Source: Leucoraja ocellata (Eukaryota). Taken from it: a stretch of DNA of 64,000 bases. The position numbers and the translations under genes were made by a program. How positions within the stretch are numbered: position 1 is the stretch's first letter; the number at the start of each line of letters is the position of its first letter. Below, one piece after another: positions 6,206 to 51,326 of this stretch. The stretch covers positions 1,116,001 to 1,180,000 of the forward strand of contig JAWMAR010000471.1 in assembly GCA_036785375.1 (NCBI GenBank), read 5' to 3'. The notes beneath the pieces are model-generated. The model did not search any database. It was not told where the DNA came from and saw nothing but the letters and a program-made list of their open reading frames with translations.

Positions 6206-7463
6206 TTATTTTAACTCACACTTTACCGATTTAAATATCTTTCCAGTGCAAATGATCGGATATGTTAGAACACGAAACAGCTCCTCTCTGAACTTGCTCT
6301 GGGTCACTGTGTAAATGGCCGTGTTGGTGCAGGAGCTCAGCAGCTGAAGCATAAATCCAACCCTTTCCAATCCACCCAAGGGGTTTCCCCAGGCCTTGTG
6401 CATAAACACATTCAAACATCGAACCGCAATAAACTGTGCAACACTTGTGGCCCAGAGCAGGATGAAGCAGCTCGAGATTGCCAGAAGTAAAACGACCGAC
6501 CGTCTGCGGTTCACCATCTCCTGGTCTTTCTTTTTCTCGCCACCGCTGAGGTCCCGGAGGTTCCTGCGGACCCGACTGGCCACGAAAATACGTCTGACGG
6601 TGAGCGCGTTAAACAACAAAATCAGGCAGAATGGAATCACCGGGGTGAACAACTGTTCGGCCCAAGAGAACACTATCCATTCGGGATCGACGTAGAAAGA
6701 TACGAGTTTCAGGCAGCCCACTTCTCTACCCGCACCGTAAAAAGTGGTGTATGCAAAGGGCAAGGGTAGATTTTTGAGGCAGATGAGCGGGCTCACGGTC
6801 AGGATAACAATCGTCGCGGTTCTCTCGGTACAATATTTGGTTTTCATTCTCTGAGTAGAAATCGCAACAAAGCGATCAAAGGTGAAAGCGACCGTGAACC
6901 ACACAGAACAATTAACAGAGACTGATGCCAGGTAGATTGTCATTTTACACACATGAGTGTAGGGCACGGAGGCATGCCACCAATACATATCAGCAATCCG
7001 GCGAAATATCACCTCACAGAGAATCACGGAGAGGTCCGCCGTCGCCATGGCTACCATGTAACGAGTGATGCACTTGGAGAGGCCGCACTTGCCACGGGAC
7101 AGGATCACAATCGCTATCAGATTCACTGGGAAAGAATGAAAACAGAAACGGATTAATTTTGAGGTGTACAGGTTGGTGGGATGGGAGCAGACGGAGAAAA
7201 CCGAAGATCTGGGGAAAACCCAAAAGGATACGGGGAGCAGTGCAATCTCCGTACAGACAAGCGCTGTAAGACAGTTACTCTAGCGCTGTACCAGCGTGCC
7301 GCCCGAACCCCCGCTGGGCTACTCACTATGTCCTCTTAACCTTTAATATTCTGCGCTTTTCAAACATGAGATGTGCCGACAATTACCTACCAGGTATACC
7401 GATTGCTGCCAGAATCGGATAATACACAAGTCCTATTTTTACCTCGATCGGAATACCGTGCAT
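6206..7463 (-). CDS. Class A GPCR, GPR139/GPR142-like, copy 1; exon1 7463-7391, exon2 7125-6206; 330 aa
   Basis: 7TM ORF with MAxAD (TM2), FTFDRF (DRY variant), TM3 and ECL2 Cys, and SSCTNTAIY (NPxxY variant). Exon 1 ATG..MHGIPIEVKIGLVYYPILAAIGIP|G gtaggt splices in phase 1 to acceptor ttctttcccag|TGAAT. Confidence 0.9.
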
Positions 7464-7542
7464 TTTAATACGGGGATCCAGGCGATCACTCCTTGTGCTG
7501 CAGTTCAGCGGTTGTCAGCCAAGCAAACAAATATCTGCCATA

Positions 7543-7548
7543 TTTATA
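7543..7548 (-). promoter_or_regulatory. Putative TATA box of GPCR copy 1
   Basis: TATAAA on the minus strand 80 nt upstream of the ATG; same offset in all four paralogs. Confidence 0.6.
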
Positions 7549-7649
7549 ATGCAAATGAAGGGAAAAACAGGCAACGAGATTACATCCCTGTGGACATCAC
7601 TTACACACTTTTGAACAAACATCTACGGTTTTGCATGTAATACTCAAAA

Positions 7650-10771: not shown

Positions 10772-11064
10772 ACTCCGTCAGTCAGTCAGTGACCCAGATC
10801 CCGAATGCGGTGACTGGAAAAGAGTGTGACCCCGTCACCATCACCTGCCTTTTCCAAGAAGGTTCCATTGGCAGCTACGTATTTAATGAAGGACATTTCG
10901 TCAAGCAAGCACAACCCGGTGCTACACGGCAGCGGATCACAACAGGTGGACGGATCGTTGTGTCGAACAATAAAGTGGAAAAGACATTTACGTTGAAAAT
11001 TCTTGGTTTGAGAGTTGAGGACATGGACACATATTACTGTCGAGCTGAGTACAAGTGGAGGAGG
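10772..11064 (+). CDS. NAR-TCR-type V segment (NTCRV-like); frame open but expected splice acceptor reads CAC rather than CAG
   Basis: QSVTQIPNAVTGKECDPVTITC..GHFVKQ..RITTGGRIVVS..KTFTLKILGLRVEDMDTYYCRAEY. Canonical Ig-V cysteines, the short C'-C'' region typical of IgNAR/NAR-TCR V, an extra FR1 Cys (KEC), and an RSS immediately downstream. Confidence 0.85.
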
Positions 11065-11102
11065 CACAGTGATGGGCCTGCGCTTCGCGCAGCACAAAAA
11101 CC
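11065..11102 (+). promoter_or_regulatory. RSS with 22-nt spacer (CACAGTG-22-ACAAAAACC)
   Basis: Perfect consensus heptamer 11065-11071 and nonamer 11094-11102. Confidence 0.95.
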
Positions 11103-13792: not shown

Positions 13793-14098
13793 ATTCCATT
13801 TTCGCGGGTTCCCAGAGTCCGCCTCAACAATCCTCTCTTTCTGGTGACACTGCCACCCTTAACTGCGTATATTCCGGAATCTGCTCGTACACAGTACACT
13901 GGTACCGACAGTTCCCAGGGCAGGCTCTGGAATTCCTGCTCCAAAGACACCCTTCAGGAAAGCAAGATGAGGAAGAGGCTGCCGAAGGTCGTATTTCTGG
14001 TTCTCTCGATCCTGCCCAGAAAATCAGTCAGTTAACGCTCTCTGAAGTACTGCCGAGCGACGGGGCTGTTTATTACTGTGGGATGAGTCCGCGCATCG
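13793..14098 (+). CDS. Supporting TCR-delta-like V segment (STCRDV-like), copy 2, intact, leaderless
   Basis: Acceptor ttttccgcag| then DSIFAGSQSPPQQSSLSGDTATLNCVYSGICSYTVHWYRQFPGQALEFLL..GRISGSLD..LPSDGAVYYCGMSPRI. Has Cys23, WYRQ, YYC and an extra CDR1 Cys; no leader exon evident upstream. Confidence 0.9.
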
Positions 14099-15243: not shown

Positions 15244-15274
<31 letters not shown>

Positions 15275-15960: not shown

Positions 15961-17121
15961 GGGAGTCAAGCGATATACGAGATGCTGTTCCTCCATTTTT
16001 TCCTCCATTTTTTTGGCGTGGCCTCGCTCGCACAGTTGAGGAGGGCACGACAGAAAAGCTCATGTGGGAATGGGAAGATATGTCAAAATGTTTGCCCACC
16101 GGAAGAACGTGAAGGCAAATGCGGAAATTGATTTGTTACCGTACATAGGATCATACAATCACAGGGTCATAGAGTGATACAGTGCGGAAAAAGACCGCTT
16201 GTCTCAACTCGCCCACACCGGCCAACAATATCCCAGATACACTAGTCCCACCTGCCTGCGCTTGGTCCATACCCCTCCAAATCTCTCCTATCCATGTACC
16301 CGCCTAACTATTTCTTAAACGATGAGATAGTCCCAGCCTCGACTAGCTCCTGTGGCAGCTTGTCCCGTACACCCGCAACCCTTTATATGAAAATATTTCC
16401 CCACGGATTCCTATTAAATATGTTTCCCTTCTCCTTGATCCTATGTCCACTGGTCGTAGATTCACTGGGCAAACGACTCTGTGCATCTGACCGATATATT
16501 CATCCCACGATTTTGTATTTCTGGCACTCCTCACCTATAGCTATACATTCGATAGACGTTTTCCGTGTACAGAAGGTATTTTAATCACGGTATCTGTATG
16601 AAACTTTACACAATCCACATCATCCGCTGCTAAAACAGCAGATTATCTTTCAACCGAAAACCTCGTCAATGAGCAATGTTTAACGTTTTTTTCAATGATA
16701 AAAGAAAATCATCAAACAACACGATGAACGTATTCATCTGAAAAATCTTCACTCGTTTGGAAAACAATATGTTCCAGGCATATGTATACATATTCGTGAA
16801 AACACAGAAGTTGGATGATTGAACGGGGCACATGGGAATACGTACACGAGTTGAGACTCAGTTGAGCCCATGAACCCCCGAAGCCGTTGGTCGTGTCCGA
16901 CAGGGCGAATGGACATAAAATGCTGTATTTCCATATTTTATTTTTATTTTTTTATTTAACCTTTATTTAACCAGCAGAAGTCTCATTGAGATTAAAAATC
17001 TCTTTTACAAGGGAGTCCTGGCCAAGACAGGCAGCAGCACAGTTCCACAGTTCCACATTTTAACCCTACATCAAAGCAACGCATGAAGACCAGCTGGTCA
17101 CTCGTTTGTGTTATATTATTT

Positions 17122-18025
17122 ATACTGCATCTGCCACGCATCTGCCGATGCACTCAACCTGTCCAGGTCACCCTGCAACCTCCTAACATCCTCTTTCCAG
17201 TTCACACTGCCACCTAGCTTTGTGGCATCCGCAAACGTGCTAGTGTTGTTCTTAATTCCCTCATCCAAGTCATGAATTTACATGGTAAACAGTTGCAGTC
17301 CCAACAACGAGTCCTGCGGCACTCCAATAGCCACTGCCTGCCAATCTGAAAATGACCCGTTCACTCCTACTCTTTGCTTCCTGTCTGCCAACCAATTTTC
17401 TATCCATGTCAATACCCCAACCCCAATACCATGTGCTCTGATTTTACTCACCAGTCTCCCGTGCGGGACATTATCAAAGGTTTTCTGAAAGTCTAGATAC
17501 ACTGCATCCACTGGCTCCCCTTCTTCCATTTTACTTATTACATCCTCAAAAAATAGTCAAGCATGATTCCCCTTTCATAAATCCATGTTGACTTGGACTA
17601 ATCCTTTTATTGCTATCCAAATGCCCCATTATTACCTCTTTAATACTTGACTCCAGCATCTTACCCGCCACCGAAGTCAGGCTAACTGGTCTGTAACCCC
17701 GGCTCTTCTTTATCGCTCCGTTCTTGAACAGTGGGGTAACATTAGTTAACCTCAAACCCACAGGAACTGATCCTCAATCCATTGAACATTGGAAAATGAT
17801 CACCAATGCGTCTACTATTTCTAGAGCCACCTCCCTAAGGACCATGGGATGCAGACCATCAGGCCCAGGGAATCCTCATCCTTTAGTCCCATTGGCCAAC
17901 CCAAAACTATTTCTCGCCTAATGAAAATTTATTTCAGTACCTCTGAAGTATGATAAATCCCATGCACCTGGTGGTCTGCAATACTCCAGGTGTGGTCTCA
18001 CCAACACCCTGTACATCTGCAGGGT
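17122..18025 (-). mobile_element. CR1 LINE ORF2 fragment
   Basis: YRPVSLTS, QHGFMKG.SCLT, YLDFQKTFD.VPH motifs. Confidence 0.88.
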
Positions 18026-18054
18026 AGACGAATGGTAGAAGAATGGTAGAACAT

Positions 18055-20546
18055 CAGCATTATAAAGTGTTCAGCAGAGCTGTCACCTCCTGAAGTAGGC
18101 ACGCCTGCATCGTGTCGCTGCTTATGGCGGACACGTTAATGAAATGTAACGGCATGTCAGCCACGCTCACGGCCTGATAGAGCAAACGGCCTGGCGTAAT
18201 TTCCTGCAGCTTCGGGATCTCTGGCTGGGACGTCAGAGGCACCAGGAAGGCCACCCCACTCGAATTTGTGCTGAGGTGGCTCTTCCCATTCCATGAGACA
18301 GGTGGTTTCATCACTGACAACAGTATGCGCCTCTTGCAGAAAACTTACTGATATTTCCCCTCTTTGACGACTGATAGATGATGACATCGGCGATGGTCCC
18401 CCTTTCCGCCATTAATGGTTAGGCTATCAACTGCGATCTCCATGTTGAAGTCATACTGAGGGTTTTCCCTCACACTTCGTAGGAGTTGGGCTCCACTCTC
18501 TTAGGAGCATGCAAGGTCCCCAAACTGACGCGTCTCAGACTCGGGAAGTCCACTGTCTTTACTGCGAAGGATAGCATCAAGTGCCCGGTTAACTTTCGGC
18601 AGGTACACAAACATGCTGGAGAAACTCAGCGGGTGCAGCAGCATCTATGGAGCGAAGGAGATAGGTAACGTTTCGGGCCGAACCCTTCTTCAGACTGAAA
18701 GGGGGTGGCGGGGAGAAGGAAGGAAAAGGGATGGAGGAGGAGCCCGAGGGCTGGGGGATGGGAGAAGACAGCTCGAGGGCTAAGGAAGGGGAGGGGACAG
18801 CAAGGGCTAACACAATTGGGATAATTCAATATTCATGCCCGCCGGATGCAGTCTTCCCAAGCGGAATATGAGGTGCTGTTCCTCCAATTTCCGGTGTTGC
18901 TCACTCTGGCAATGGAGGAGACCCAGGACCGAGAGGTCGGATTGGGAATGGGAGGGGGAGTTGAAGTGCAGAGCCAGCGGGAGGTCAGATAGGTTCTTGC
19001 GGACCGAGCGGATGTGTTCGGCGAAACGATCGCCCAACCTCGGCTTAGTCTCACCGATGTAGATCAGCTGGCATCTAGAGCAGCGGATGCAGGAGATGAG
19101 GTTGGAGGAGATACAGGTGAACCTCTGTCGCACCTGGAACGACTGCTTGGGTCCTTGAATGGAGGCGAGGGGGGAGGTAAAGGGACAGGTGTTGCATTTC
19201 TTGCGGTTGCAACGCAACGGGGAGGGAGTGGTACGGGAGGGAAGGGAAGAATTGACAAGGGAGTTGCGGAGGGAGCGGTCTTTGCGGAAGGCAGCCATAG
19301 GGGGAGATGGGAAGATGTGGCGAGTGATGGGGTCACGTTGGAGGTGGCGGAAATGACGTAGGATTATATTAGTTTCGGCAGGTCCGGCCACTGTTTGCCA
19401 GCTGTCTGGACTTTGCTCCTACTGCACTTGTTTGCTTTCAGAAATTCCAGAAAGTGTCAGATACCGGCCCCAAAATACACAACAATGGAATTCAGGCATT
19501 CTGCCAACCCACTGATGCACGCAGCAGCATCTTCTCCCCTCACTACGCTCAAGCTCTGAGTTCGGAGGTCTGCAGCTGGCTACTAGCTCGCTCGCTCCCA
19601 TGCGTAAGCTGGATACATCGGGCTTCCCCACCTCCAGCATGATCCCACCCCCGGGATCAGTTTCGAGTGAGGGTCCGGATACCTCTGACACCGATGAGCT
19701 GGCCAGTGAATGGCCAGGCTCCTGCCCATTCCCACCACCCCCTACAACTGGGGCTGGGAAAGAATAAACTAGAGGCGTCCCTCGGCCCCGCGGTTCGCAG
19801 GCATCCCAGGAATCCGATTGAGGTTCACGACCCGAGACAGCCCCGTCCCCTTCCGCACCCAGGATACCCGCTCCAACAGTATCACCCTGAGAGACTACAG
19901 CCTCCGCCACCAGGGGAGTAACCTAACCATGGCCCACAGAAGGAGTCAGTGTTTCTGGAGTCTCCACTACTACATCAGTCGATGGGGCAGCACACCCCTC
20001 AGCTACTCGTGTGGGTCCAATGAGGAGCACAGGTTGGGAAACAACGCCTACACTACAGATTCCCCCTGCAGGTTGCCACCGCTTGTCCTCCATTCCAGGG
20101 GACATGCTTCCAAGGGAGCTAACCCCAGCAACTGGTGAGATAACACGCTCGGAACGTCACCGCTCTCGACAGCGGTGGAAGGTCTCGAGGAAAGTTGCCT
20201 CCTGACATTGAGCCCAGGGCCGTGCTCTCCCTCAAAGGACCCACGCCTTCTCTGTGTCCCGCTGAATTGCGGCGGTACGGTGACCTCCACAAACGAGTAG
20301 TCCTCTGCCTCCACACTGCCAGTTTTCTATTTTTCATCTCCCTGTTCAGCCTCCACAGCTCCCTTCTAAACCCTCCCTTGCCCCCTTCTGAACCTCCTCC
20401 ATTCCTTGCTGAACCACGCCTGGTGCCTCCTGGACCTCACTGTGATCAACCGGCACCCTTCAGGTGGGTTCGGGGTGTGGGCGTGGACAAATCAGCTTGC
20501 GGCTGACTTGCTTGGAGGTGTTTATTCCCCCCCCCTCCCCCCGTCC

Positions 20547-20578
<32 letters not shown>

Positions 20579-20950
20579 CGCCTCTCCGTCATCCGACACC
20601 GCATGTAGAGGACATCGGGGGCGGGGGGAAGTACTGCGCTGGGCTCCTTAGGTGGACCTGGAAGACCCAGATGGGTCAGCAGTGCCGCCCCTGGTAACCG
20701 AAGTGGAACTGGGAGCCCCGGATGGGCCAGCGGTGCTTTCCTGGGCAGCTGTGTTGGGATTTTTCGCAGCAGCCCGGCGATTGGATGCGGGCGAGTCGGA
20801 ACTACTTGCACGCATTCCCGCACTGAATGGAGATATTCTTTAAAAAGGAAAGTTTCCGCAGTCCAACGTTTGGTCAGACTTCGAACTCTCGCTGCCTCTG
20901 TCCCTCTTTGCTCCGACAAAAAACTTTTGAAAGTTCGCTTCGAAACCTCT
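18055..20950 (-). mobile_element. Degenerate Tx1/L1-like element (ORF1 remnants plus APE start), interrupted by a Penelope insertion
   Basis: MEIAVDSLTINGG..FLQEAH..GVAFL..GRLL..HFINV APE-like N-terminus at 18060-18450. Further copies at ~33900-37055 and ~54055-58995. Confidence 0.6.
18590..19372 (-). mobile_element. Penelope-like element 3' part, GIY-YIG endonuclease
   Basis: C..C..C zinc motif and NLI.CIRCSRCQLIYIGETK.RLGDRFAEH..G.LHPAGMNIE; flanking duplicated sequence matching (a)cctgccgaaa. Confidence 0.88.
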
Positions 20951-21311
20951 CAGCGTCGGAGCAGAGATTGACACCACCCCGTGGGGCCTGGCGACCGTGG
21001 ATCTACGGAGAGAAGGTGACGTTTCGGGTCGAGACCCTTCTGCAAACTGATGTGGGGGTGGGGGTGCGGGAAGAAGAATGGAAGAGGCGGAGACAGTGGG
21101 CTGTGAGGGAGCTGGGGAGGGGAGGGGAGGGAGGGAGAAAGCAAGGACTACCTGAAATTGGAGAAGTCGATGTTCATACCGCTGGGGTGTAAACTACCCA
21201 AGCGAAATATGAGGTGCCGCACCTCCAATTTGCGGTGGGACTCACTATGTTCTGGGCCTCCCCCATGGCCAGAATGAGTTACGTAGATTAAGGCACAACA
21301 ATAAGTCAGTT

Positions 21312-21355
21312 TCCCTCATGGTCCAGAGGTCCGGATTCGATTCCCGTTCAGTGAG
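21312..21355 (+). pseudogene. tRNA-Glu-like relic lacking the anticodon arm (copies at ~3110-3152 and ~53657-53701 on the minus strand)
   Basis: tccctcatggtccagagg (acceptor stem/A-box-like) joined directly to ccggattcgattcccgttcag (T-arm/B-box-like). Confidence 0.45.
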
Positions 21356-22541
21356 CCCCATACTGTTGGCAGAGTTGACATATGGACACCTGGAGGAGTG
21401 TATCATCACTTCATTTATTAACTGTTTGTTTGTGAACGACATATTGCACGAGCAATGTTTGTTTTTAGTACAATATATCTTCATTTTAATTCATAAATGA
21501 CAGAATATTTTATTTTATTCACAGTTTGCGAGGGAAGAGGAGAAATAGGTAGATACAAAGTTAACCCCACCAGCCCCAATTTTGTAGTATCAGGGGAACA
21601 TTATGCGGCTTGCCGCCTCTTGAGTGCAAATGAACAGCAGGCAGTATCTCTACAGGAAAACGATAGATGACGTTTCTGGTCAGGATCCTTCTTCCGTCTG
21701 AAAGTAGGGCGAGGCCACTGGATGCAAGAATAGGCCAGAACGAGACAGGGAATGCAACGCGTGACTAGGAAATGAAGGAGCCCATAATGGCCCATTGTTG
21801 GCTGTGGAATAAGTGGTCACACACAACTACAAAGATGCGAGCAGTACAACTAGTGTGATGACTATGTTGGAGGAGAGGGTGAGAGAAAGGGAGTCAAGCG
21901 ACCTACGAGATGCTGTTCCTTCATTTTGTGCGTGGCCTCGCTCTAGCAGATGAGGAGGACAACGACAGAATGGTTTATATGGGAATGCGTAGAGGTGTTA
22001 AAATGTTTGCCCACCGGGGAACGTAAAGGCCAATGTGGAAATTGATTTATTACCGTACATGGGAGCCACGGTGTCACAGAGTCATAGAGTGATACAGTGT
22101 GGTATAAGGACCTTCGGCCCAACTCGCCCACACCGGCCAACAATATCCCAGATACACCAGTCCCACTTGCGTGCGCTTGGTCCATATCCCTCCAAATCTC
22201 TCCTATCCAAGTAACTTTCTAACTGTTGCTTAAACGACGGGATAGTCCCAGGCACAACTACCTCTTGTCGCAGCTTGTTCCGTACATCCACCACCCTTTG
22301 TATGAAAATGTTTCCCCACCGAATCCTCTTAAATATGTTTCCCTTCTCCTTGACCCTATGTCCTTTGGTCGTAGATTCACTGGGCAAACGACTCTGTGCA
22401 TCTAACCGATATATTCATCTCATGATTTTGTATTTCTGGCACTCCTCACCTATAGCTTTACTTTCGATAGAGGTCTTCCGCATACAGAAGGTATTTTAAA
22501 CACGGTATCTGTATGAAACTTTACACAATCCACATCATCCG

Positions 22542-23305
22542 GTAAATTTACATGGTAAATGCTAGGGAATTGAAGAATGCAGGTGAACAGATGGATCTGG
22601 GAATAACTGTGCACAGTTCCCTGAAAGTGGAATCGCATGTAGATAGGGTGGTAAAGAAAGCTTTTGGGGTGCTGGCCTTTATAAATCAGAGCATTGAGTA
22701 TAGAAGTTGGGATGTAATGTCAACATTGTACAAGGCATTAGTGAGGCCAATTCTGGAGTATGGTGTACAATTTTGGTCGCCTAATTATAAGAAGGATGTC
22801 AACAAAATAGAGAGAGTACAGAGGAGATTTATTAGAATGTTGCCTGGGTTTCAGCAACTAAGTTACAGAGAAAGGTTGAACAAGTTAGGGCTTTATTCTT
22901 TGGCGCGCAGAAGGTTATGGGGGGACATGATAGAGGTCGTTAAAATGATGAGAGGGATAGACAGAGTTGACGTGGATAAGCTTTCCCCACTGAGAGTAGG
23001 GAAGATTCAAACAAGGGGACATGACTTGAGAATTAAGGGACTTAAGTTTAGGGGTAACTTGAGGGGAACTTCTTTACTCAGAGAGTGGTGGCTGTGTGGA
23101 ATAACCTTCCACTGAAGGTGGTGGAGGCAGGTTCGTTATTATCATTTAAAAATAAATTGGATAGTTATATGGACGGGAAAGGAATGGAGGGTTATGGTCT
23201 GAGCGCAGGTATATGGGACTAGGGGTGAATACGTGTTCGGCACGGACTAGAAGGGTCGAGATGGCCTGTTTCCGTGCTGTAATTGTTATATGGTTATTTG
23301 GTTAT
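22542..23305 (+). mobile_element. CR1 LINE 3' fragment with ATCCG target-site duplication
   Basis: ORF 22552-23115 is CR1 RT C-terminus; empty site catcatccgctgctaaaac at ~5700 and ~16625. Confidence 0.92.
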
Positions 23306-23686
23306 ATCCGCTGCTAAAACAGCAGATTATCGTCAAACCGAAAACCTCGTCAATGAGCAATGATACGTTTTTTCAATTATTAAAGGAAATCATCAAACAA
23401 CACGATGCACCTATTCAACTGAAAATCTTCACTCGTTTTGAAAACAATATGTTCCAGGCATGTGTATACATATTCTTGAAACGACAGAAGTTGAATGATT
23501 GAACGGGGCACATGGGAATGCGTACAAGAGGTGAGACTCAATTGAGCCGATGAACCTCCGAAGCAGCTGGGCGTGTCCGACAGGGCGAATGGACATAAAA
23601 TGTCCACACATTAAATGCGGTATTTCCACATAAACCCTGCAGCAAACCAACGCATGAAGCTCAGCTGGTCATTCGTTTTTGTTATA

Positions 23687-31461: not shown

Positions 31462-31529
31462 TCAGCGTGGCGGAATACAGGCACACAGCATTTACTTAAA
31501 GCTCGTGCGGCCTCGGCAGGGCTCGTAGC

Positions 31530-32299
31530 ATAATCAAGGGGGTAGATCTAAGGGGGTAGAGGAACTGAAAGACATTTCCATTAGGCGAGAAATAGTATTG
31601 GGTAGGCTAATGGGACTGAAGGATGATAAATCCCCAGGACCCGATGGTCTGCATCCCAGGGTGCTCAGGGAGGTGGCCCCAGAAATAGTGCTCGCATTGG
31701 TGATCATTTTCCAATGTTCAATAGATTCAGGATCCGTTCCTGTGGATTGGAGGATAGCTAATGTTATCCCAGGAAAGGGGCGAGAGAGAAAACGGGGAAT
31801 TACAGACCAGCTAGCCTGACTTCGGCGGTGGGAAATATGCTGGAGTTAATTATTAAATAGGTAATAACGGGGCATTTGGATAGCAGTAAAAGGATTAGTC
31901 CAAGTCAACATGGATCTATGAAAGGGAAATCATGCTTGACTAATCTTCTGGAGTTTTTTGAGGATGTGACAAGTAAAATGGAAGAAGGGGTGCAAGTGGA
32001 TGTAGTGTATCTACACTTTCAGAAAGCATTTGATAAGGTCCCGCACGGGAGACTGGTGACTAAAATTGGAGCACATGGTATTGGGGGTAGGGTGTTGACA
32101 TGGATAGAAAATTGGTTGTCAGACCGGAAGCAAAGAGTAGGAGTGAACGGTACCTTTTCAGAATGGCAGGCAGTGGCGAGTGGAGTGCCGCAAAGCTCCG
32201 TGTTGGGGCCGCAAATGTTTACCATATATATTAATGATTCGGAAGAGGGAATTAGGAACAACACTAACAAGTTTGCGGATGACACAACGCTGGGTGGCA
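31530..32299 (+). mobile_element. CR1 LINE ORF2 fragment, ending at N-gap 32300-32499
   Basis: KSPGPDGLHPRVLRE, KSCLTNLLEFFE, FQKAFDKVPH, FADDT motifs. Confidence 0.9.
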
Positions 32300-35484: not shown

Positions 35485-35515
<31 letters not shown>

Positions 35516-38638: not shown

Positions 38639-41369
38639 TTATTTTACCAATTGCCCTATATTTTTAGCGCAACGGAATGGATATGTTAGCACACGGACCA
38701 ACTCATCTCTGAACTTGCGCTGTGTCACGGTGTAAATGGCCGTGTTGGTGCAGGAGCTCAGGAGCTGAAGCATAAATCCAACCTTTTCAAATTCGAACAG
38801 GGGGTTTATCCAGGACCTGCGTAAGGACAAATTAAAACATCGAAGCACAATAAAATGTGCGACACTTGTGGCCCAGAGCAGGATGAAGGAGCTCGAGATT
38901 GCCAGAAGTAAAACGACCGAGCGTCTGCGGTTCACCATCTCCTGGTCTTTCTTTTTCTCCCCACCGCTGAGGTCCCGGAGGCTCCTGCGGACCCGACTGG
39001 CCACGGAAATACGTCTGACGGTGAGCGCGTTAAACAACAAAATCAGGCAGAATGGAATCACCGGGGTGAACAACTGTTCGATCCAAGAGAACACTATCCA
39101 TTCGTGACGCATGTAAAAATATACATCTTTGGCGCAGCCCAGATTCAGTTCAGTTGGGAAATAGGGAACGTATGCGAAGGGCAAAGGTGTATTCAGAAGG
39201 CAGACGAACGGGGTCACTGTCAGAATAACAATCGACGCGGTTCTCTCGGTGCAATATTTGGCCTTCATATTCTTAGTAGAAATCGCAATAAAGCGATCAA
39301 ATGTGAACGCGACTGTGAACCATACAGAACAATCCACCGACACGGGAGCCAGGTAGAGTATTATTTTACACACAGGCGTGTAGGTCAATGAAGTAGGCCA
39401 CCAATACATATCAGCAATCCGACCAAATACCAAGTCAATGAGAAGCACAGAGAGGTCCGCGGTCGCCATGGCTACCATGTAACGAGTGATGCACTTGGAG
39501 AGGCCGCACTTGCCACGGGACAGGATCACAATCGCCATCAGATTCACTGGGAAGGAATAAAAACATAAAGTGGTGAATTGTGTTGGGGTTTGCGACGGCG
39601 GGTGAGGGTTATTTAAACGTGCGCATATTTGGGACGATCAAACATCAAAGTGTTCTATAAAGATGTTCAATCGTCAGCAAATGATTAAATACCTGATTAC
39701 CAAAACTAGTGAAATTTGAATGAATGAAAACTTTATTGTCATTCAGATATACACCTAGACACAGTGCACCTTGAACGAAATGTCGTTGCATTTGACTCTC
39801 CAAAATCAGGTAATAGTAAAAAGTGCTAGGTGCGTCCATAAAAAATGCCTCATGTGCATGGTTCTGTCAAATAAATATATATAAAAAGTTTTTAATAAGT
39901 GTCGATATTTAAAAAGTTCCTGCCACGGTTTTGTTGATTGTTCAGTAATCTTATGGCCTGGGGGATGAAGCTGTCCCAGAAATTTCCGTCTCTATTTATC
40001 TGCACATATTTATGCCAACCGTTTAATATTGGTGTGTTGTTATCCCGGCATGATCGCGGCAGCTGCAGTCTCTATTATCTGTACTTCAAAAACCTATCTT
40101 AAAATTGCCTTCCGACCTGAGGGGGAACATGTCTGGTTGTTCACAATGACGTTTTTCTGTTGGGTAAATTGTTCATACGATCTTCAAATCTCTCTGCGAA
40201 ATTATCCCTGTGGAATTTCAAGAGATCTACAGAAAAGGCAGTGCCAAGTTACGGGACGGGGTGCGTTTTTCTTTCTAGCGTGTGCAGGACGCACTGCGGA
40301 AGAAGTAGTCCCACACACAGCGAGGACGCCGTGTCGCTTGCCCCACCAACAGCACAGGTGCGGGGCATCTGTTGTGGCCAAACTCCGTGGAGGTTAAATT
40401 TGTACCAGAGTCTATGAGTGGCCACATGTCAAGATTCAAGATTCAAGATTCAAGATTCAAGATTCAAGATTCAAGATTCAAGATTCAAGATTCAAGATTC
40501 AAGATTCAAGATTCAAGATTCAATTTATTTGTCACTTGGACCCCTTGAGGTCCAAACGAAATGCCGTTTCTGCAGCCATACATTACAAACAAATAGACCC
40601 AAGACACAACATAATTTACATAAACATCCGTCACATCGCTGTGATGGAAGGCCAAAAAAACCTCTCCACTGCATTCTCCCCCCCCCCCTTTCCCCCCCGA
40701 TGTCAGAGTCAAAGTCAAAGCCCCCGACTGGCGATGGCGATTGTCCCGCGGCCATTAAAGCCACGCCGGGTGGTGCAAGGTCGCACACCGGGTTCTTGAT
40801 GTTAGAGCCCCGGCGTGCGCTCGCGGAGTCCCGCGGCCATTCCAAGCCGCGCACCCGTCATAGAGGCCAACGCATTTCGTCTCTCCTAAGAGTTGCCTTG
40901 GCTTATTTGAGTTTTGTTTAGATGTGCAGCCCCGAAGCGGGGCGTCCGGTTCATCGAGTCCTCGCCGATCAGCGATCCACGCACACTAACAATATCCGAC
41001 ACACACTAGCTATTTAAAATAAATATATACCAAATCAATTAACCTAAAAACCGATCTGTTTTGGAGAGCTGGAGGAAACCGAAGATCTCGGAGAAAACAC
41101 ATGTTGGTCACGAGGCGAACCTACAAATTCGGTAAAGACAAGCAACAGTTGCGGGGAGCGAGCCGTGCACCATCGCCGCTGAGACTTCGTGCAGCCCTTG
41201 ACCCTGCCGGGTTATTCCGTATGATCTCTTCATCTTTACTCCTCTGCGCTTTTCAAACTGTCTTTGTAAGTTCAATGAGATGTGCCGACAATTACCTACC
41301 AGGTACACCAATTGCTGCAAGAATCGGGTAATACACAGATTCTATATCCAGGATGTCACGATAATACAT
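38639..41369 (-). CDS. Class A GPCR, GPR139/GPR142-like, copy 3 (most divergent); exon1 41369-41300, exon2 39546-38639; 325 aa
   Basis: Intact 7TM ORF; exon 1 MYYRDILDIESVYYPILAAIGVP|G gtaggt; acceptor ttccttcccag; TATAAA at 41449-41454. Confidence 0.9.
40429..40519. repeat. (TCAAGAT)13 tandem repeat, probably a LINE 3' tail on the minus strand, within the GPCR3 intron
   Basis: 13 perfect 7-mers followed by caatttatt (AATAAA on the minus strand). Confidence 0.9.
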
Positions 41370-41959: not shown

Positions 41960-43600
41960 GAAACATAGAAAATAGGTGCTGGAGGAGGCCATTCGGCCAC
42001 ACGAGCCAGCACCGCCACTCATTGTGATCATGGCTGATCGCCCCCTATCAATAACCCGTGCCTGCCTTCTCCCCATATCCCTTGAATCCACAAGCCCCCT
42101 AGAGCTCTATCTAACTCTCTCTTAAATCCATTCAGTGACTTAGCCTCCACTGCCCTCTGCGGCAGGGAATTCCATAAATTCACAACTCTCTGGGTGAAAA
42201 CGTGTTTTCTCACCTCAGTCTTAAATGACCTCCGCTTTATTCTAAGATTGTGGCCCCTGGTACTGGACTCGCCCAACAATAGGAACAGTTTTCCTGCATC
42301 TAGCTTGTCCAGTCCTTTATAATTGTATATGTTCCTATAAGACCCCCCTCATCCTTCTAAACTCCAGTGAATACAAGCCTCGCCTTTTCAATCTTTCCTC
42401 ATATGACAGTCCCGCCATCCCAGGGATCAATCTCGTGAACATACGCTGCACTGCCTCAATCACAAGGATGTCCTTCCTCAAATTAGGAGACCAAAACTGT
42501 ACACAATGCTCCATATATGGTCTCACCAGAGCCCTATACAACTGCAGAAGAACCTCCATACTCTTATACTGAAATCATTTTGTTATGAAGGCCAACATTC
42601 CATTAGCTTTCTTCACTGCCTGCTGTACCTGTAAGCCAACTTTCAGTGACCGGTGTACAAGGAGTACCTAACCCCATTGAGATAATAATCTGCCCCCTTG
42701 TTTTTGCCGCCAAAGTGGATAACCTCACATTTATCTATATTATACTGCATCTGTCACGCATCTGTCCACTCACTCAACCTGTCCAGGTCATCCTGCAAAC
42801 TCCTAACATCCTCTTCACAGTTCACACTGCCACCCAGCGTTGTGTCATCCGCAAACTTGTCAGTGTTGTTCCTAATTCCCTCTTCCAAATCATTAATATA
42901 TATGGTAAACATTTGCGGCCCCAACACGGAGCTTTGCGGCACTCCACTCGCCACTGCCTGCCATTCTGAAAAGGAACCGTTCACTCCTACTCTTTGCTTC
43001 CGGTCTGACAACCAATTTTCTATCCATGTCAATACCCTACCCCCAATACCATGTGCTCCAATTTTAGTCACCAGTCTCCCGTGCGGGACCTTATCAAATG
43101 CTTTCTGAAAGTGTAGATACACTACATCCACTTGCACCCCTTCTTCCATTTTACTTGTCACATCCTCAAAAAACTCCAGAAGATTAGTCAAGCATGATTT
43201 CCCTTTCATAGATCCATGTTGACTTGGACTAATCCTTTTACTGCTATCCAAATGCCCCGTAATTACCTATTTAATAATTAACTCCAGCATATTTCCCACC
43301 GCCGAAGTCAGGCTAACTGGTCTGTAATTCCCCGTTTTCTCTCTCGCCCCTTTCCTGGGATAACATTAGCTATCCTCCAATCCACAGGAACGGATCCTGA
43401 ATCTATTGAACATTGGAAAATGATCACCAATGCGAGCACTATTTCTGGAGCCACCTCCCTGAGCACCCTGGGATGCAGACCATCGGGTCCTGGGGATTTA
43501 TCATCCTTCAGTCCCATTAGCCTACCCAATACTATTTCTCGCCTAATGAAAATGTCTTTCAGTTCCTCTACCCCCTTAGATCTACCCCCTTGATTATGCT
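41960..43600 (-). mobile_element. CR1 LINE 3' half
   Basis: ORFs 42028-43529 with RT motifs; 3' tail agaaacatagaaa at ~41960. Confidence 0.9.
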
Positions 43601-43665
43601 ACGAGCCCTGCCGAGGCCACGCGAGCTTTAAGTAAATGCGGTGTGCCTGTATTCCGCCACGCTGA

Positions 43666-43770
43666 AGTTTTGGTACAGCTGTCTCTCTGCGCTGTGCCAC
43701 TATGCGATGCGTGGACTCATCCCACAGTAATACAAAGCTTCGTCGCCGGCAGTACTACAGATAGCGTTAA
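43666..43770 (-). pseudogene. Inverted 3' fragment of a supporting V with a dead RSS (CATAGTG)
   Basis: Reverse complement of 31356-31461; heptamer 43698-43704, nonamer 43666-43674. Confidence 0.85.
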
Positions 43771-44149
43771 TAATGCAGGAATGCCAGTACAAGGCCTGTT
43801 GTTTGTTTGTTTGATGAGAGGCTGGACGGCCAAAGGTGGTGGGAATTGCTGCACCGCGGCTTATAACATCGACGAAAGATCAACGCGAGGCCCCAGTCGG
43901 GCTGGGTACCGGTATTATTCCGACTGTCAATGATCCAGTGAAAGGTAACATACAGATTGCAATGAATGCAGTCACCAGCAGGGATGGAGAAACACAGGAA
44001 CACAGAAAATAGCTGTAGGCGTAGGTCATTCTCCTTTCGAGACAGAACTGACATTCAATATGATCCAGGCATTTGGGCACTGGAGGTGGGGTAGCTCTGT
44101 TGGTGAGGGGTGAAATGGACGCCCTTGCGAGGGTTGACAGAGGGACTGA

Positions 44150-47100
44150 CTGAAATCACGTTGGTTCTGGAACACAAGAAAGGGAGTTTGTAGAGTGCTT
44201 CTGAGATGGATTCTTAAAGCAACTTGCATTGGAGCATACAAGAGACAAGGCAATTCTGGATTTAGTGTTGTCTAATCCACCAAATTTAGTAGGGGAAATC
44301 TAGGTAAGGAACCGCAAGGAGGTAGTGACCATTATATGATAAGTTTTAATCTGCAATTTGAGAGGGAGAAAGTTAAATCAGAATTGTCAGTGTTGCGGTT
44401 GAACAAAGGGGAATTACGGCATGGGAGAAGACCTGGCCAAGGTCGACTGGAAAATGATTCAAACAGGAATGACGGAGAAAGAGCAATAGCAGGAATTTCT
44501 GTCCATTATGCAGAAGATGCAGGATCATTTCAGTCCAAAGATGAAGAAATATTCTAAGGGGAGTAAGAGGCAACCGTGGCTGACAAGGGATGTTGTGAAC
44601 GGTATAAAACTAAACGAAAAGATGAATAAAATAGCAAAGAATGGCGGGAAGCTAGATGATTGGGAAACATCAGAAGTAACAGAAAGGGCAATACGGTGTG
44701 AAAAGATGAAGTACAAAGGTAAGCTCGCCAGGAATATAAAGAAGGGCTGTAAAAACACATTTAGGTATGTTAAGAGAAAAAGATTAGGAAAGGCAGATGT
44801 GGGTCCCTTAACAGCAGAAGCTGTTGATATTATTATGGGGAACAAGGAAATGCCAGAAGAGTTGAACATGTACTTTAGTTCCGTTTTCGCTAACTAAGAC
44901 ACAAACATCTCCCAGATGTACTAGAAGACTAGTGAGACGTATTACAGAGTCCTAGCGAGACCACATCTGGAGTATTGTGTGCAGTTTTGGTCCCCAAATT
45001 TGAGGAAGGACATTCTTGCTATTGAGGGAGTGCAGCGTAGGTTTACAAGGTTAATTCCCGGGATGGCGGGACTCTCATATGCTGAGAGAATAGAGCAGCT
45101 GGTCTTGTACCCTCTGCAGTTTAGAAGGATGAGAGGGCATCTCATTGAAACATATAAGATAGTTAAGGGCCTGGACACGCTAGAGGCAGGAAACATGTTC
45201 CCGATGTTGGGGGAGTCCAGAACCAGGGGCCACAATTTATGAATAAGGAGTAAGCCATTTAGAACGGAGACGAGGAAACACTTTTTCTCACAGAGAGTGG
45301 TGAGTCTATGGAATTCTCTACTTCAGATGGCAGTGGAGGCGGGCTCTCTGGATGCTTTCAAGAGTGATCTAGATAGGGCTCTGAAAAATAGCGGAGTCAG
45401 GGGATATGGGGAGAAGGCAGGAACGGGGTGCTGATTGGGGATGATCAGTCATGATCACATTGAATGGCGGTGCTGGCTCGAAGGGCCGAATGGCCTACTC
45501 CTGCACCTATTGTTTATTGTCTATTGTCTATAAGACAGACGGAGAAACTGAAAGACATTTGCATTGGGCCATAAATAGTATTGGGTAAACCGCTGGGACT
45601 GAAGGCTGATAAATCCCTAGGATCTGACGGTCAACATCTCAGGGGACTCAAGGTCGTGGTTCTAGAATCCGTGGACGTATTGGTGATCATTTCCAATGTT
45701 CAATAGATTCAGGATCAGTTCATGTGGATTGGAGAGTAGTTGATGTTATCCCACTTTTCAAGAAAGGAGCGAGAGCGAAAACGGGAAATTAGAGAACAGT
45801 TGGCCTGACATCGGAGCTGGGGAAGATGCTGGATTCAATTATCAAAGACGTAATAACGGCGCATGTGTACACAATTAAAAGATTGGTCCAAGTCAGCATG
45901 GATTTATGAAGAGGAAATGCTGCTTGACAAATCTTCTGGAATGTTTTGAGAATGTGACAAGTAAAATGGATGAAGGAGTTACCTTCAGAATGGCAGGCAG
46001 TGGCGAGTAGAATGCCGCAAGGCTCGATGCAGGGGCCGCAGCTATTGACAATATAGATTAATGATACATCTGATGCATTTAAAAGTAACACGAGCAAATT
46101 TGCAGATGACACAAGGCCGGGATGCAGTGTGAACTGCGAAGAGGATGCGAGGTGGATGTAAGATGACCTGGACAGATTGAGTGAGTGGGCAGATTCATGG
46201 CAGATGCTGCATAATGTAGGTAAATGTGAGGTTATCCACTTTGACGGCAATAGCATGGAAGCAGATTATTAATAATAATAATAATGGATGGGATTTATAT
46301 AGCGCCTTTCTAGATACTCAAGGCGCTTTACATCGCATTATTCATTCACTCCACAGTCACACTCGGTGGTGGTGATCTACTTCTGTAGCCACAGCTGCCC
46401 TGGGGCAGACTGACGGAAGCGTGGCTGCTAATCTGCGCCTACGGCCCCTCCGACCACCACCAAACACTCACACACATTCACACACATTCACACGTGTGTG
46501 ATTATTATCTCAATTGTGTCAGATTTGGGGAAAAATGGATGTGCGACGAGACTTGTGTGTCCTTGTCCACCAGTCACTTAATGCGAACATTCAGGTTCAC
46601 CAGGTAGTGAAGAAAGCTAATGGCATGTTGGCCTCCATAACGTGAGGATTTGCGCATAGTAGTACAGATCCTTCTGCTGTTGTGCAGGACCTTGGTGAGA
46701 CAACATCGGCAGTATTGTGTGCAGTTTTGGTCACCCAATTTGGAGAAGGAAATCCTTGCTATGGAGGGAGTGCAGCGTGGTTCACAAGGGTAACCCACGG
46801 TATGGCGGGACTCATAAGAGGAAAGATTAGAAAGATTGGGCATATATTCACTGGAATTTAGAAAGATGAGAGGGCGCCTTGTGGAAAAAGAAACAATTAT
46901 AAAAGGACTGGTCACGCTAGATGCAGGATTTTTTTTTGCAACTGCTATGGGAGTCCAGAACCAGGGGCCATCGTCTAAGGGTAAAGGGGAGGGCATTTAA
47001 AATTGAGATGAGAAAAATCTTTTTCACCCAGAGAGTTGTGAATATGGGGAATTCTGTCACAAAGGGCAGTGGAGGCCAATTCGCTGGATGAAATGAAAAG

Positions 47101-48960
47101 AGAGGGAGATAGAGCTATTGGGGCTGGGAGAATCAAGACACATGAGGAGGCAGGCACGCGTTACCGATAGTGGATGAGCAGCCACGATCAATATGCATGG
47201 CGGTGCTGACTCGAAGGGCCATATACCCTCCTCCTGCAGTTATTTTTCTATGTTTCGATGTTTCTATTTAAAATCAGTACCCCGTTCCTGCTTTCTCCCC
47301 CCATAACGTTTTGAGTATAAGAGGAGGGAGTTTCTACTGCAGTTATACAGGGTCTTGGTGAGACCACACCTGGAGTATTGCGTACAGTTTTGGTCTCCTA
47401 ATCTGAGGAAATACATTTTTGCCATAGAGGGAGTATAGAGAAGGTTAACCAGACTGATTCGTGGGATGGCAGGACTTTCATATGAAAAAAGACTGGATAG
47501 ACTCGGCTTGTACACGCTGGAATTCAAAAGATTGAGGGCGGATCTTATAGAAACTTACAAAATTCTTAAGGGGTTGGACAGGCTAGATGCAGGAAGATTG
47601 TTCCCGATGTTGGGGAAGTCCAGAACTAGGGGTCACAGTTTAAGGATAAGAGGGAAGTCTTTTAGGACCGAGATGAGAAAATCATGTTTTACACCGAGAG
47701 TGGTGAATCTGTGGAACTCCTTGCCACAGAAGGTAGTTGAGGCCAGTTCATTGACTATATTTAAGAGGGAGTTAGATGTGGCCCTTGTGGCTAAAGGGAT
47801 CAGGGGGTATGGAGAGAAGGCAGGGATGGGATACTGAGTTGGATGATCAGCCATGATCATATCGAATGGCGGTGCAGGCTCGAAGGGCCCAATGGCCTAC
47901 TCCTGCACCTATTTTCTATGTTTCTATGTTTCTATCCCTTGTTTCGATTAGCCCTAAGAGCTAAATCTAACTCTCTCGTGAAATCTTCCAGTGAATTGCC
48001 CTCCATTGCCTTCTTTGTTAGAGCATTCCACCGATTCACAACTCTCTGGGTGAAATAGATTTTCCTTATCTCAGTCCTAAGTGGTTTTGGGCCCTGTTGA
48101 GGCCGCATTTGTGAATGATTTTGGTCTCCTAATTTGTGGAAGGACTTGATTATTATTGAGGAAGTTCAGCATCGGTTCTCTAGATTAGTTCCCGCGATGG
48201 CGGGACTGACATATGATGAAAGAATGGGTTGAGTGTGCTTGTATTCACGGGCATTTTGAAGGATGAGAGGGATTTATAGAAACATACAATTCTAAAAGGG
48301 TTGGATGGGCTAGATGCAGGAAACATGTTCCCGATGTTGGGGGTGTCCAGAACAGGGAGTCAACGTTTAAGAATAAGGATAGGTAATTTTGGACTCAGAT
48401 GAGGGGAATTCTATTTCACCCAGAGACTTGTGAATCTGTGGAGTTTTCTGCCACAGAATAGAGTGGAGGACAATTCACTGGATGTTTCAAGAGAGAGTTA
48501 GATTTAGCTCTTGGGGCTACAGGAATCATAGGATATGGGGAATAAACAGGAACGGGGTACTGATTTTAGATGATCTGCCACGATCGCATTGAATGGCGGT
48601 TCTGGCTCGAAGGACCGAATGGCCTACTCCGGCATCGAATTTTCTGTTTCTATGTTTCTTAATGGCCTACCACTTATCCTTAAACTGGGACATCTGTTTC
48701 TGGACTGTCAATATCCGGAACATTTTTCCTGCATCTAGCCGGTCCAACAGTCTTGCTACTGAGGGAATGCAGCGTTAGTTCACACGGTTAATTCCCGGAA
48801 TGTTGGGGCTGTTACATGCTGAGAGAATGGAGCGACTGAGCTTGTATACTCTGGAATTTGGAAGAATGAGAGGGGTTCTTATTTAAATATATAAGGTTAT
48901 TAAGGGTTTGGACACGCTAGAGTCACGAACCATGTTCCCGATGTTGGGGGCGTGCAGACC
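44150..48960. mobile_element. Nested CR1 fragments (mirror of 26160-30980)
   Basis: CR1 motifs; ORFs mirror those of the left arm. Confidence 0.8.
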
Positions 48961-49172
48961 CAGGGGGGACAGTTCAAGACTGGTGATTTTTAGTATTACA
49001 CGGAAAACAGTAGATGTTTGTTCAGAAGTGTGTAAGTAATGTCCACAGGGATGTAAGCTCGTTGCCTGTTTTTCCATTTATTTGCATTATAAATATTCCA
49101 GATATTTGTTTGTTTCGCTGACAACCGCTGAGCGGCAGCACAAGGAGTGATCGCCTGGACCGTCGCATTAAA

Positions 49173-51326
49173 ATGCACGATATTCCGATCGAGGTAAAAA
49201 TAGGACTTGTGTATTATCCGATTCTGGCAGCAATCGGTATACCTGGTAGGTAATCGTCGGTTCATCTCATGTTTGAAGAGCGCAGAATATTAAAGGTTAA
49301 GAGGACATAGCGAGTAGCCCAGCGGGGGTTCGGGCGGCACGCTGGCGCGTCGCGAGAGTAACTGTCTTACAGCGCTTGGCTGTACGGAGTTTGTACGTTC
49401 TCCCCGTATCCTTTTGGGTTTTCCCCGAGATCTTCGGTTTGCTCCCACGCTCCATATAAGTAAAATAAATTGTACCTTGTGTGTGCCGGCTGTTGTGAGT
49501 GTGCGCGATCGGTGCGGATTAGGTGGGCCGGTGTTGTGTTTTCGCGCTGTATTCCTAAACTAAAATAAAGTAAGCGATATCCACCGCAGGAGCGATATGT
49601 GATGGATGCCGCTCATTCAAGCTGGCAGAAATGTAGCCCTCACGGCTTTTTTTACTAAAATCAATGCCCGTATTGATTTTACTACGTCGCCTGTCGATGT
49701 CCTCCAGAGATATTACTTGCGCCACTGAGATACACCACCATTGGCTCTTGTCAGGTGCAGTACACAGGCCCGCCCGCTGCTCGGCAGAAAATATCTGCCC
49801 GTTATGTTGTTAGCCGTGTTTGCGAAGGGGGTTTGTAATTATATTTGCTGCGCTTCACTGAATCCCTTTCCTTGGCCCCGTGTTGGGAGATGCATTCTCG
49901 AAGGCCCAATGGAAAACAGACCGCGTTAATCCAGGCCGCGATTGACTACATGCCCCGACTCAAAAGTTGCCCACTTCTCAGCAATAAAAAAAATTTAGAG
50001 ACACTGACTCACCGCTTGAAAATATTATATATTTTACATCAACATCAAACGGTTGGCATAATGTTGTGAAGATTAGTACAAAAGGAACTCCCACTAATCT
50101 TGGTAAACGGTATTTTATCCATTTGCAGATTAAATTCCTGATTTCTAAAATCGGATTGCCTCTTGTACCAATATTTTCAGCTTTATGTAATTATTTTCTA
50201 CATAAGGCAATCCCACTAATTTTGCTAATCAGGAATTTAATAATTTACTGAATGAACATCTTTCTGGCAAACGATTGACGGATGATTGACCCAAATACTG
50301 ATTCGTTAAATAAACAGTCTCTACCACTGGCGACACAGGTTTAAATGACTGCATCTGCTCCCACCCACCACACAATTAATCAGTTTCTGTTTTCATTCTT
50401 TCCCAGTGAATCTGATGGCGATTTTGATCCTGTCCCGTGGCAAGTGCGGCCTCTCCAAGTGCATCACTCGTTACATGGTAGCCATGGCGACCGCGGACCT
50501 CTCTGTGATTTTCTGTGAGGTGATATTTCAGCGGATTGCTGATATGTATTGGTGGCATGCCTCCTTGCCCTACACATCTGTGTGCAAAATAACAATCTAC
50601 CTGGCATCGGTCACGGTAAATTGTTCTGTGTGGTTCACGGTCGCTTTCACCTTTGATCGCTTTGTTGCGATTTCTACTCAGAACATGAAAACCAAATATT
50701 GCACCGAGAGAACCGCGACGATTGTTATCCTGACGGTGAGCCCGGTCATCTGCCTCAAAAATCTACCTTTGCCCTTTGCATACACTTCTTATCTCGGAAT
50801 GGGTGGAGAACTGGGCTGCCTCAAACTCGTAGATTTTTACGTTCATGCCGAATGGTTGGTGTTCTCCTGGGCCGAACAGTTGTTCACCCCGGTGATTCCA
50901 TTCTGCCTGATTTTGTTGTTTAACGCGCTCACTGTCAGACGTATTTTCGTGGCCAGCCGGGTCCGCAGGAACCTCCGGGACCTCAGCGGTGGGGAGATAA
51001 AGAAAGACCAGGAGATGGTGAACCGCAGACGGTCGGTCGTTTTACTTCTGGCAATCTCGAGCTCCTTCATCCTGCTCTGGGCCACAAGTGTCGCACATTT
51101 TATTGCGGTTCGAAGTTGGAAACTGTTTGTGTTCAAGGCATGGAAAAATCCCGCAGAAGAATTTGAAAAGGTTGGAAATATGCTTCAACTGCTGAGCTCC
51201 TGCACCAACACGGCCATTTACACCGTGACCCAGAGCAAGTTCAGAGAGGAGCTGTTCCGTGTGCTAACATATCCGATCATTTGCATTGGAAAAATATTTA
51301 AATCGGTAAAGTGTAAGTTAAAGTAA
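49173..51326 (+). CDS. Class A GPCR, GPR139/GPR142-like, copy 4; exon1 49173-49245, exon2 50407-51326; 330 aa
   Basis: Intact 7TM ORF; exon 1 MHDIPIEVKIGLVYYPILAAIGIP|G gtaggt; acceptor ttctttcccag|TGAATC; TATAAA at 49088-49093; about 11 aa differences from copy 2. Confidence 0.9.

Follow-up and report, generated by a model that had tools for sequence, protein, structure and literature searches.

Receptors for FMRFamide, MIP and myosuppressin and the receptor GPR139 have been grouped as one radiation (PMC8514136), and nematode srw chemoreceptors arose from the FMRFamide/MIP/GPR139 radiation (PMC2576165). GPR139 and GPR142 are vertebrate orphans that recognize L-Trp and L-Phe (PDB 7VUG, 9M42), and GPR139 couples to Gq (PMC6367278). 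The orphan GPR210 of coelacanth, gar and teleosts has been placed beside GPR139 and GPR142 (Rinne et al., PMC6504862). Cartilaginous fish have been reported with only a few dozen chemoreceptor genes; the catshark repertoire consists of 8 OR-type, 3 ORA, 3 TAAR, 2 TARL and about 35 V2R-type genes (PMC11979771). The window analysed here, a 64,000-nucleotide stretch of the genome of the skate Leucoraja ocellata (GenBank assembly GCA_036785375.1, contig JAWMAR010000471.1, positions 1,116,001 to 1,180,000), contains four genes for G-protein-coupled receptors (GPCRs) of class A, G1–G4, whose family numbers about 2,000 loci. With slightly better than even confidence, we regard G1–G4 as intact members of an orphan class A family in which the ligand face has been diversified by selection and segment exchange, and which forms a chemosensory-type repertoire for outside molecules.

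Each of the four genes has two exons and an intact open reading frame (ORF), as determined by ORF and self-similarity scans, in a background of repeats of the long interspersed element type. G1 spans 6206–7463 (−; exon 1 7391..7463, exon 2 6206..7125), G2 23687–25967 (−; exon 1 25895..25967, exon 2 23687..24606), G3 38639–41369 (−; exon 1 41300..41369, exon 2 38639..39546), and G4 49173–51326 (+; exon 1 49173..49245, exon 2 50407..51326). Exon 1, which is 70–73 nucleotides long, starts with ATG, encodes the short N-terminus and the outer part of transmembrane helix 1 (TM1), and ends at a GT donor with a phase-1 intron positioned immediately before N1.50. Exon 2 is preceded by a pyrimidine-rich AG acceptor and extends from the end of TM1 to the stop codon. 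The spliced products are 325 (G3) or 330 (G1, G2 and G4) residues long and have zero internal stops. The Pfam profile 7tm_1 matches the three window receptors scanned with 54–57.5 bits against a cut-off of 30.5 (E = 5e-15 for G1, 2e-14 for G3 and 2e-15 for G4); it is the sole profile at E ≤ 0.001, and there is no olfactory-receptor Pfam match. G2 and G4 are carried by the left (17120..32299) and right (42828..59912) arms of an inverted duplication, which align in three pieces with approximately 96% identity. Therefore, the window contains only three independent receptor types, G1, G2/G4 and G3, of which G3 is the most divergent. Both arms also contain GIY-YIG endonuclease ORFs (18810–19418 (−) and 57612–58226 (+)), which probably belong to a Penelope-type element.

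The boundaries of helices and loops were taken from an AlphaFold2 model of the homologue P0003, which is 96% identical to exon 2 of G3 (91-row alignment; predicted local distance difference test score (pLDDT) 79); it was used in place of a single-sequence fold of the G4 exon 2 ORF with a pLDDT of 37. The model has a seven-helix fold that matches class A structures, including those of peptide receptors and GPR139, with Z scores of 25–28. Variable positions among G1–G4 make up 29 of 47 in the extracellular loops and 30 of 87 in the outer halves of the transmembrane helices, compared to 7 of 90 in the inner halves and 10 of 64 in the intracellular loops and helix 8 (Fisher's test: p = 7e-7 for extracellular versus intracellular, p = 2e-10 for outer versus inner). 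The same asymmetry is found in four clades of the family, designated A–D. The initial annotation proposed that the receptors vary on the extracellular face while the intracellular face is nearly invariant. All of the extracellular loop (ECL) 2, ECL3 and intracellular loop (ICL) strings that it quoted are present, with the ECLs falling into the types of G1, G2/G4 and G3. Its first half holds, and the variation is not limited to ECL2 and ECL3 but reaches ECL1 and the outer halves of the helices. The second half also holds, with the correction that strict invariance is limited to ICL1 (0 of 8 positions variable in the window), some variation being present in ICL2 (3 of 13), ICL3 (4 of 29) and helix 8 (3 of 14). 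The mean identity to the commonest residue among 99 paralogs is 0.92 for ICL1, 0.74 for ICL2, 0.67 for ICL3 and 0.66 for helix 8, with ICL2, ICL3 and helix 8 differing from one subfamily to another; that of ECL1–3 is 0.47–0.55. The ECL2-coding block of G4 (50778..50852 (+), boundaries from the P0003 model) includes C45.50, and in the ECL3-coding block (51117..51152 (+)) 9 of 12 positions differ within the window. ECL3 of G3 carries an NLS sequon.

The motifs FDRF, LLWAT and NTAIY, as first described, are present in all four genes. The N-terminus is also as short as had been stated, approximately 10 residues or fewer, since TM1 begins near residue 4–6 in the P0003 model, and it contains no N-glycosylation sequon in any of the four window genes or in 58 exon 1 peptides from intact copies. 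The residues N1.50, D2.50, C3.25 and C45.50, D/E-R3.50 and Y7.53 are each present in 99 of the 99 intact paralogs, and the switch residues are likewise unchanged in all 99.

Positive selection was analysed in codon alignments of clades A–D, which are independent and recent; A, to which the window's genes belong, B, C and D contain 16, 26, 18 and 12 unique sequences, respectively. The GY94-type site models were run with our own code, and posteriors are naive empirical Bayes estimates. Comparison of models M1a and M2a gives twice the log-likelihood difference (2ΔL) as 30.3, 93.6, 74.4 and 15.3 for clades A–D, with an ω2 (ω being the ratio of nonsynonymous to synonymous rates) of 3.1–6.6, and the comparisons M7/M8 and M8a/M8 agree. 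Sixty-five sites reach a posterior above 0.9: 40 in the extracellular parts, 16 in the outer and two in the inner halves of helices, and seven in the intracellular parts, which places 56 of the 65 on the outer face. Twelve flagged positions recur in at least two clades, every one of them on the outer face. The eight selected sites of clade A are 2.61, five in ECL2, which lie within the G4 block described above, one in ECL3, and 7.39, and each is occupied by 3–6 different residues. Models with region-specific rates identify positive selection on the outer face in four of four clades (likelihood-ratio test (LRT) statistics 18.5, 52.7, 55.4 and 13.9 for A–D) and an inner-face signal in one of four, with none in A, B and D. 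The ω of the inner helix halves is 0.15–0.33, which corresponds to purifying selection.

The outer-face LRT was reached by 0 of 13, 0 of 6, 0 of 8 and 0 of 9 null simulations (A–D) that combined gene conversion with a 2.5-fold faster outer rate. Conversion-only simulations matched the whole-gene LRT in 0 of 14, 0 of 6, 0 of 13 and 0 of 20 cases, and gene conversion alone is therefore rejected as the source of the site-model signal. Conversion together with a 2.5-fold faster loop rate also failed to produce the whole-gene LRT of clades B (0 of 10) and C (0 of 13). Within segments, the per-site amount of change correlates between independent clades in four of six pairs (p < 0.05). The site models proposed in the initial annotation thus find selected outer sites in four clades, but the average ω of the loops is approximately 1. 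This is best read as strong selection at a minority of outer sites, the others being neutral or constrained, together with purifying selection on the inner parts, and it supports the proposed diversification of the ligand-facing surface.

Recombination is detected in all four clades (p = 0.002–0.03), and neighbouring copies are mosaics of exon 1, TM2–TM3, ECL2 and ECL3 blocks of different types, with the same block types recurring in other skate genera. Between G1 and G4, four-fold silent differences amount to 12 of 52 (23%) in the outer parts, 6 of 76 (8%) in the inner parts and 55 of 686 (8%) in the flanks (p = 0.0013 for outer versus flank). Because the outer silent divergence exceeds that of the flanks, and because the blocks form mosaics and occur in other genera, the outer blocks appear to be older than the genes that carry them. 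The extracellular silent rate is raised in clades A and B; the outer silent excess at unchanged four-fold codons is significant in clade A only (p = 0.04). G3 differs from the other genes by 15–22% in the flanks, and has only 2–3 silent changes where about eight are expected in the block from inner TM5 through ICL3 to inner TM6 (p = 0.013–0.04), and 0–1 where about four are expected around ICL1 (p = 0.016–0.08); its ICL2 block is fully diverged. This shortage of silent changes suggests that the ICL1 and ICL3 blocks have been partly homogenized by gene conversion, and that part of the inner identity is due to recent copying. With block-wise conversion, an invariant intracellular face alone is no proof of conserved coupling.

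Searches with exact motifs identified 836 loci for ICL1, 2,044 for TM3 (control 0) and 2,258 for TM7 (control 115); these counts take in broken copies and probably duplicated haplotigs, so that the real figure could be no more than half of them. The matches lie in clusters, in a birth-and-death pattern. All 130 candidates scored, out of 4,284 found in a protein search of the same genome, are at least 56% identical. The 264 kb surrounding the window, together with 14 additional loci from the protein search and 80 retrieved stretches, yielded 111 copies, of which 99 have an intact exon 2. Among loci picked by motif only, exon 2 is intact in 23 of 29 and broken in 6. The 264-kb region contains 17 receptor copies, four of them broken. 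Of 2,286 homologues in sequence databases, where the family is labelled 'probable GPR139', the best 120 include 118 from cartilaginous fishes, and the four closest named proteins are from skates (77–87% identity). On G000:C29:1161-474624 and C59:7372570-7821755, members occur at regular steps of about 35 kb and 65 kb, which suggests large recent tandem amplifications; two of three sampled C29 copies are broken. The loci L012 and L013 (G000:C471:1185292-1191787) are an inverted pair with identical exon 2 and a two-residue insertion in ECL2, in which a G3-type exon 1 is joined to a G1-type exon 2, and are either a very recent duplication or an assembly artefact. In L020 (G000:C1182), an in-frame deletion removes most of TM7.

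The nearest characterized relatives are the receptors of the GPR139/142-FMRFamide-MIP group, with which the family has the intron before N1.50 in common. GPR139 is the best sequence match of the family profile in the PDB (E = 1.8e-18, compared to 1.2e-12 for the next). It also matches in structure (Z = 27.3, 23% identity and a root-mean-square deviation of 2.9 Å across 275 residues), on a par with NPY4R; fold searches single out no one receptor, since GPR139 ties with several peptide receptors. Like the skate family, GPR139 and GPR142 have a phase-1 intron just before N1.50, and the residues N5.58, F6.44, W6.48, N7.49 and Y7.53 are common to the family and GPR139, both of which lack P7.50. By contrast, C3.25 and C45.50, present in 99 of 99 family members, are missing from GPR139, and GPR139 is a conserved single gene, whereas the skate family has about 2,000 loci under diversifying selection. 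P6.50 is mostly lost in the family (kept in 7 of 99). Activation of GPR139 by Trp and Phe requires F3x33, H5x43, W6x48 and N7x38 (PMC5430874). The window genes have S or P, E, W, and F or N in these columns, and in the family W is kept in 97 of 99 and N in 8 of 99; F3x33, H5x43, N7x38 and R6.51 are not conserved. Amino acids, which had been listed among the ligands to be screened, gain no support from the pocket, and their prediction from GPR139 is rejected, as only W6.48 of the four key residues is retained. Orthology to GPR139 is also rejected: the genome has its own GPR139 on another contig, C465, which shares 19–21% identity with the window genes and branches outside the clade of the family. 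Exon 2 of this GPR139 occurs there twice (L131 and L132 on G000:C465), 47 kb apart, inverted and encoding identical protein, as a real duplication or an assembly artefact.

A profile search of 1.84 billion representatives, with 20 of 150 matches looked up by name, provided relatives for a tree of 38 rows, the root of which is a midpoint only and in which GPR139 forms a long branch. Salamander proteins are sister to the shark and ray family (support 100/98), followed by coelacanth and teleost proteins (98/96 among successive sisters) and, further out, two amphioxus proteins; GPR139 and invertebrate or unnamed receptors lie outside. These relatives, which are low-copy, speak against a restriction to cartilaginous fish, which is rejected. 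The probable counterpart of the bony-fish members is GPR210, which resembles the family in being an orphan placed beside GPR139 and GPR142; unlike the skate expansion, few genes are listed for it, and its description includes no cartilaginous fish, with zero mentions of shark or cartilaginous (PMC6504862). Atlas neighbours of the skate homologue P0002 include FMRFamide-receptor-like clusters with PF10324 (Srw). The nematode srw and srz chemoreceptors differ, however, in being an independent expansion in another phylum, with no clear selection in srw (PMC2576165), and the window proteins match 7tm_1 only.

Upstream of the ATG, all four genes have an O/E-like site, TCCACAGGGA, at approximately 131 bp and a TATAAA box at approximately 85 bp; a further box, TGTTTGTT, lies upstream of the O/E-like site. 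The first two elements are located at 7585–7594 and 7543–7548 (−) for G1, at 49042 and 49088 (+) for G4, and at equivalent places for G2 and G3. Related modules precede members of clades B and D as well as some more distantly related copies; an O/E-like site upstream of a TATA box occurs in 28 of 60 promoters compared to 3.3 expected by shuffling, although the promoters are not independent. The module has been inherited by clades both on and off the window's contig. An octamer upstream of G1 and G4 was rejected as a shared element, being present in 3 of 60 promoters. The O/E-like site could be bound by EBF factors in either B cells or olfactory neurons, and does not distinguish control in the one from control in the other. 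Seven RNA sequencing runs from related organisms, with coded tissues and 1–25% of each covered, are uninformative for these genes: a few partly fitting reads on the conserved ICL1 and TM3 have loose ends like distant paralogs, no read spans the intron, and the VNAR-like variable (V) segment received none.

The receptors are interleaved with antigen-receptor V segments: the 17 copies alternate with 12 VNAR-like and 10 T-cell receptor (TCR)-like V segments over 264 kb, and the unit V(NAR)–V(TCR)–receptor is repeated across at least 260 kb. The VNAR-like segment of the repeated unit at 10780..11102 (+), probably of the NAR-TCR type, has a canonical recombination signal sequence (RSS) with a 23-bp spacer at 11065. 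A segment at 1312..1651 (+), assigned as TCR-like from its context, is followed by CACAGTG-23-ACCAAAACC, and a second at 13795..14094 (+) has the altered heptamer CACGGTG. Further V segments lie at 31356–31445, 33363–33652 and 43682–43744; altogether, the V segments of the window include one altered heptamer, one frameshift and two fragments. The locus fits the NAR-TCR-type region described for sharks, from the description of which the words GPCR, G protein and GPR are absent (PMC12227049). A J-segment-like peptide, HGGTTVTVE, is encoded at approximately 13230–13280 (+) between the VNAR-like and the TCR-like V segment, with no clear RSS beside it in a scan of the window. A zf-RVT retroelement remnant is located at 2224–2994 (+).

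According to the explanation that we slightly favour, tandem duplication would make new receptor copies, and gene conversion would even out the ICL1- and ICL3-coding blocks and recombine the exon 1, TM2-ECL1-TM3, ECL2 and TM6-ECL3-TM7 blocks. Selection would favour novel residues in all three extracellular loops, at the top of TM6 and at 7.39, and would keep divergent outer blocks from being overwritten by conversion. The conserved N1.50, D2.50, C3.25–C45.50, DR, N5.58, F6.44, N7.49 and Y7.53 may hold one activation path, onto which many ligand pockets would be fitted, with signalling through a shared G protein in putative chemosensory cells. The predicted ligands, from the kinship with FMRFamide, MIP and GPR139-type receptors, are short peptides or similar molecules. 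Conserved G-protein coupling of the paralogs is plausible, and the G protein may be Gq by analogy with GPR139.

Several results weigh against this explanation. The mean ω of the extracellular loops is 1.17 (p = 0.50), 0.77, 1.8 and 3.67 (p = 0.009) in clades A–D and departs from 1 only in D, so that a region-level extracellular ω above 1 is rejected for the window's clade. A tree-free count of distinct variants, which is proof against recombination, gives 1.01 for the extracellular loops and 1.22–1.26 at the positions that are hot across clades, which is not significant (p = 0.14 and 0.09). The inner face of clade C also shows a signal (2ΔL = 10.2), and conversion combined with a loop rate raised 2.5-fold was sufficient for the whole-gene LRT in 2 of 17 simulations for clade A and 3 of 18 for D. 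Null simulations were few, with 6–20 replicates, allelic copies derived from duplicated haplotigs may be present in the clades, and the tests for ICL homogenization share sequences and are uncorrected for multiple blocks. A study of catshark is reported to have no GPCR among the 50 most specific brain and olfactory genes (PMC11979771). An average extracellular ω of about 1 also favours a reading in which change in the loops is simply tolerated, folding and conversion hold the inner half in place, and the copies in the window are passengers of V-segment duplication that have no diversified function. It is in line with recombination in every clade, the raised extracellular silent rate in A and B, the four broken copies among 17 in the 264-kb region, and the inclusion of V segments in the repeated unit. 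However, the outer-face signal survives region-specific rates and beats all simulated nulls, the eight flagged sites of clade A have 3–6 residues each, per-site change correlates between clades in four of six pairs, and loci picked by motif are mostly intact (23 of 29), all of which make this reading improbable.

The same diversified receptors might alternatively act on leukocytes or epithelia and sense peptides that come from microbes or damage, much as formyl-peptide or Mas-related receptors do. In favour of such immune or barrier sensors, positive selection is strong in each of the clades tested, compared to only 1 of 19 nematode chemoreceptor families (PMC2576165). The position of the window's subfamily among VNAR-like and TCR-like V segments points the same way, and the upstream O/E-like site could serve EBF in B cells. 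Most of the approximately 2,000 loci are nevertheless on other contigs, and inheritance of the promoter module extends to clades beyond the window's contig as well as on it; we consider an immune function unlikely, though less so than the passenger status of the copies. The alternation of 17 receptors with 12 VNAR-like and 10 TCR-like V segments could further indicate a T-cell-specific role, in which V(D)J rearrangement would change which receptor is kept or expressed in each clone. Most of the receptors, however, are in reverse orientation relative to the V segments; they also possess TATA-containing promoters of their own, shared with clades on other contigs, and exhibit the same selective pattern as those clades, which leaves this role very improbable.

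The family resembles the OR, TAAR, V1R/ORA and V2R genes of chondrichthyans in being a clustered GPCR repertoire with dynamic copy number, but it is unrelated to them in sequence and, by the raw motif count that includes haplotigs and broken copies, approximately 50 times larger than the catshark repertoire; the main text of the catshark study, as far as available, does not mention it (PMC11979771). Expanded GPCR repertoires whose outer face evolves fast are, as a kind, already known. MRGPR and formyl-peptide receptors, which sense foreign peptides in sensory and immune cells, have the short N-terminus, tandem expansion and fast-evolving outer face that also characterize the skate family, but they belong to a different branch of class A. 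Neither the family itself nor its size or block-wise shuffling was found described: full-text literature searches, beyond the reach of which most subscription papers lie, returned no description of the expansion. The selection test with controls, the signature of conversion, and the relatives in bony vertebrates and amphioxus are new here. Tentatively, and at somewhat less than even confidence, sharks, rays and skates may run a further, unrecognized chemosensory system that comprises roughly a thousand genes or more, derived from an ancient peptide-receptor lineage that is low-copy in bony vertebrates, in which conversion shuffles extracellular blocks onto a shared chassis. If this is true, a family of about 2,000 loci selected on the ligand face would rank among the largest GPCR repertoires of vertebrates, hidden under the label 'probable GPR139', and would bear on the breadth of chemical sensing, or of innate recognition, in sharks and rays.

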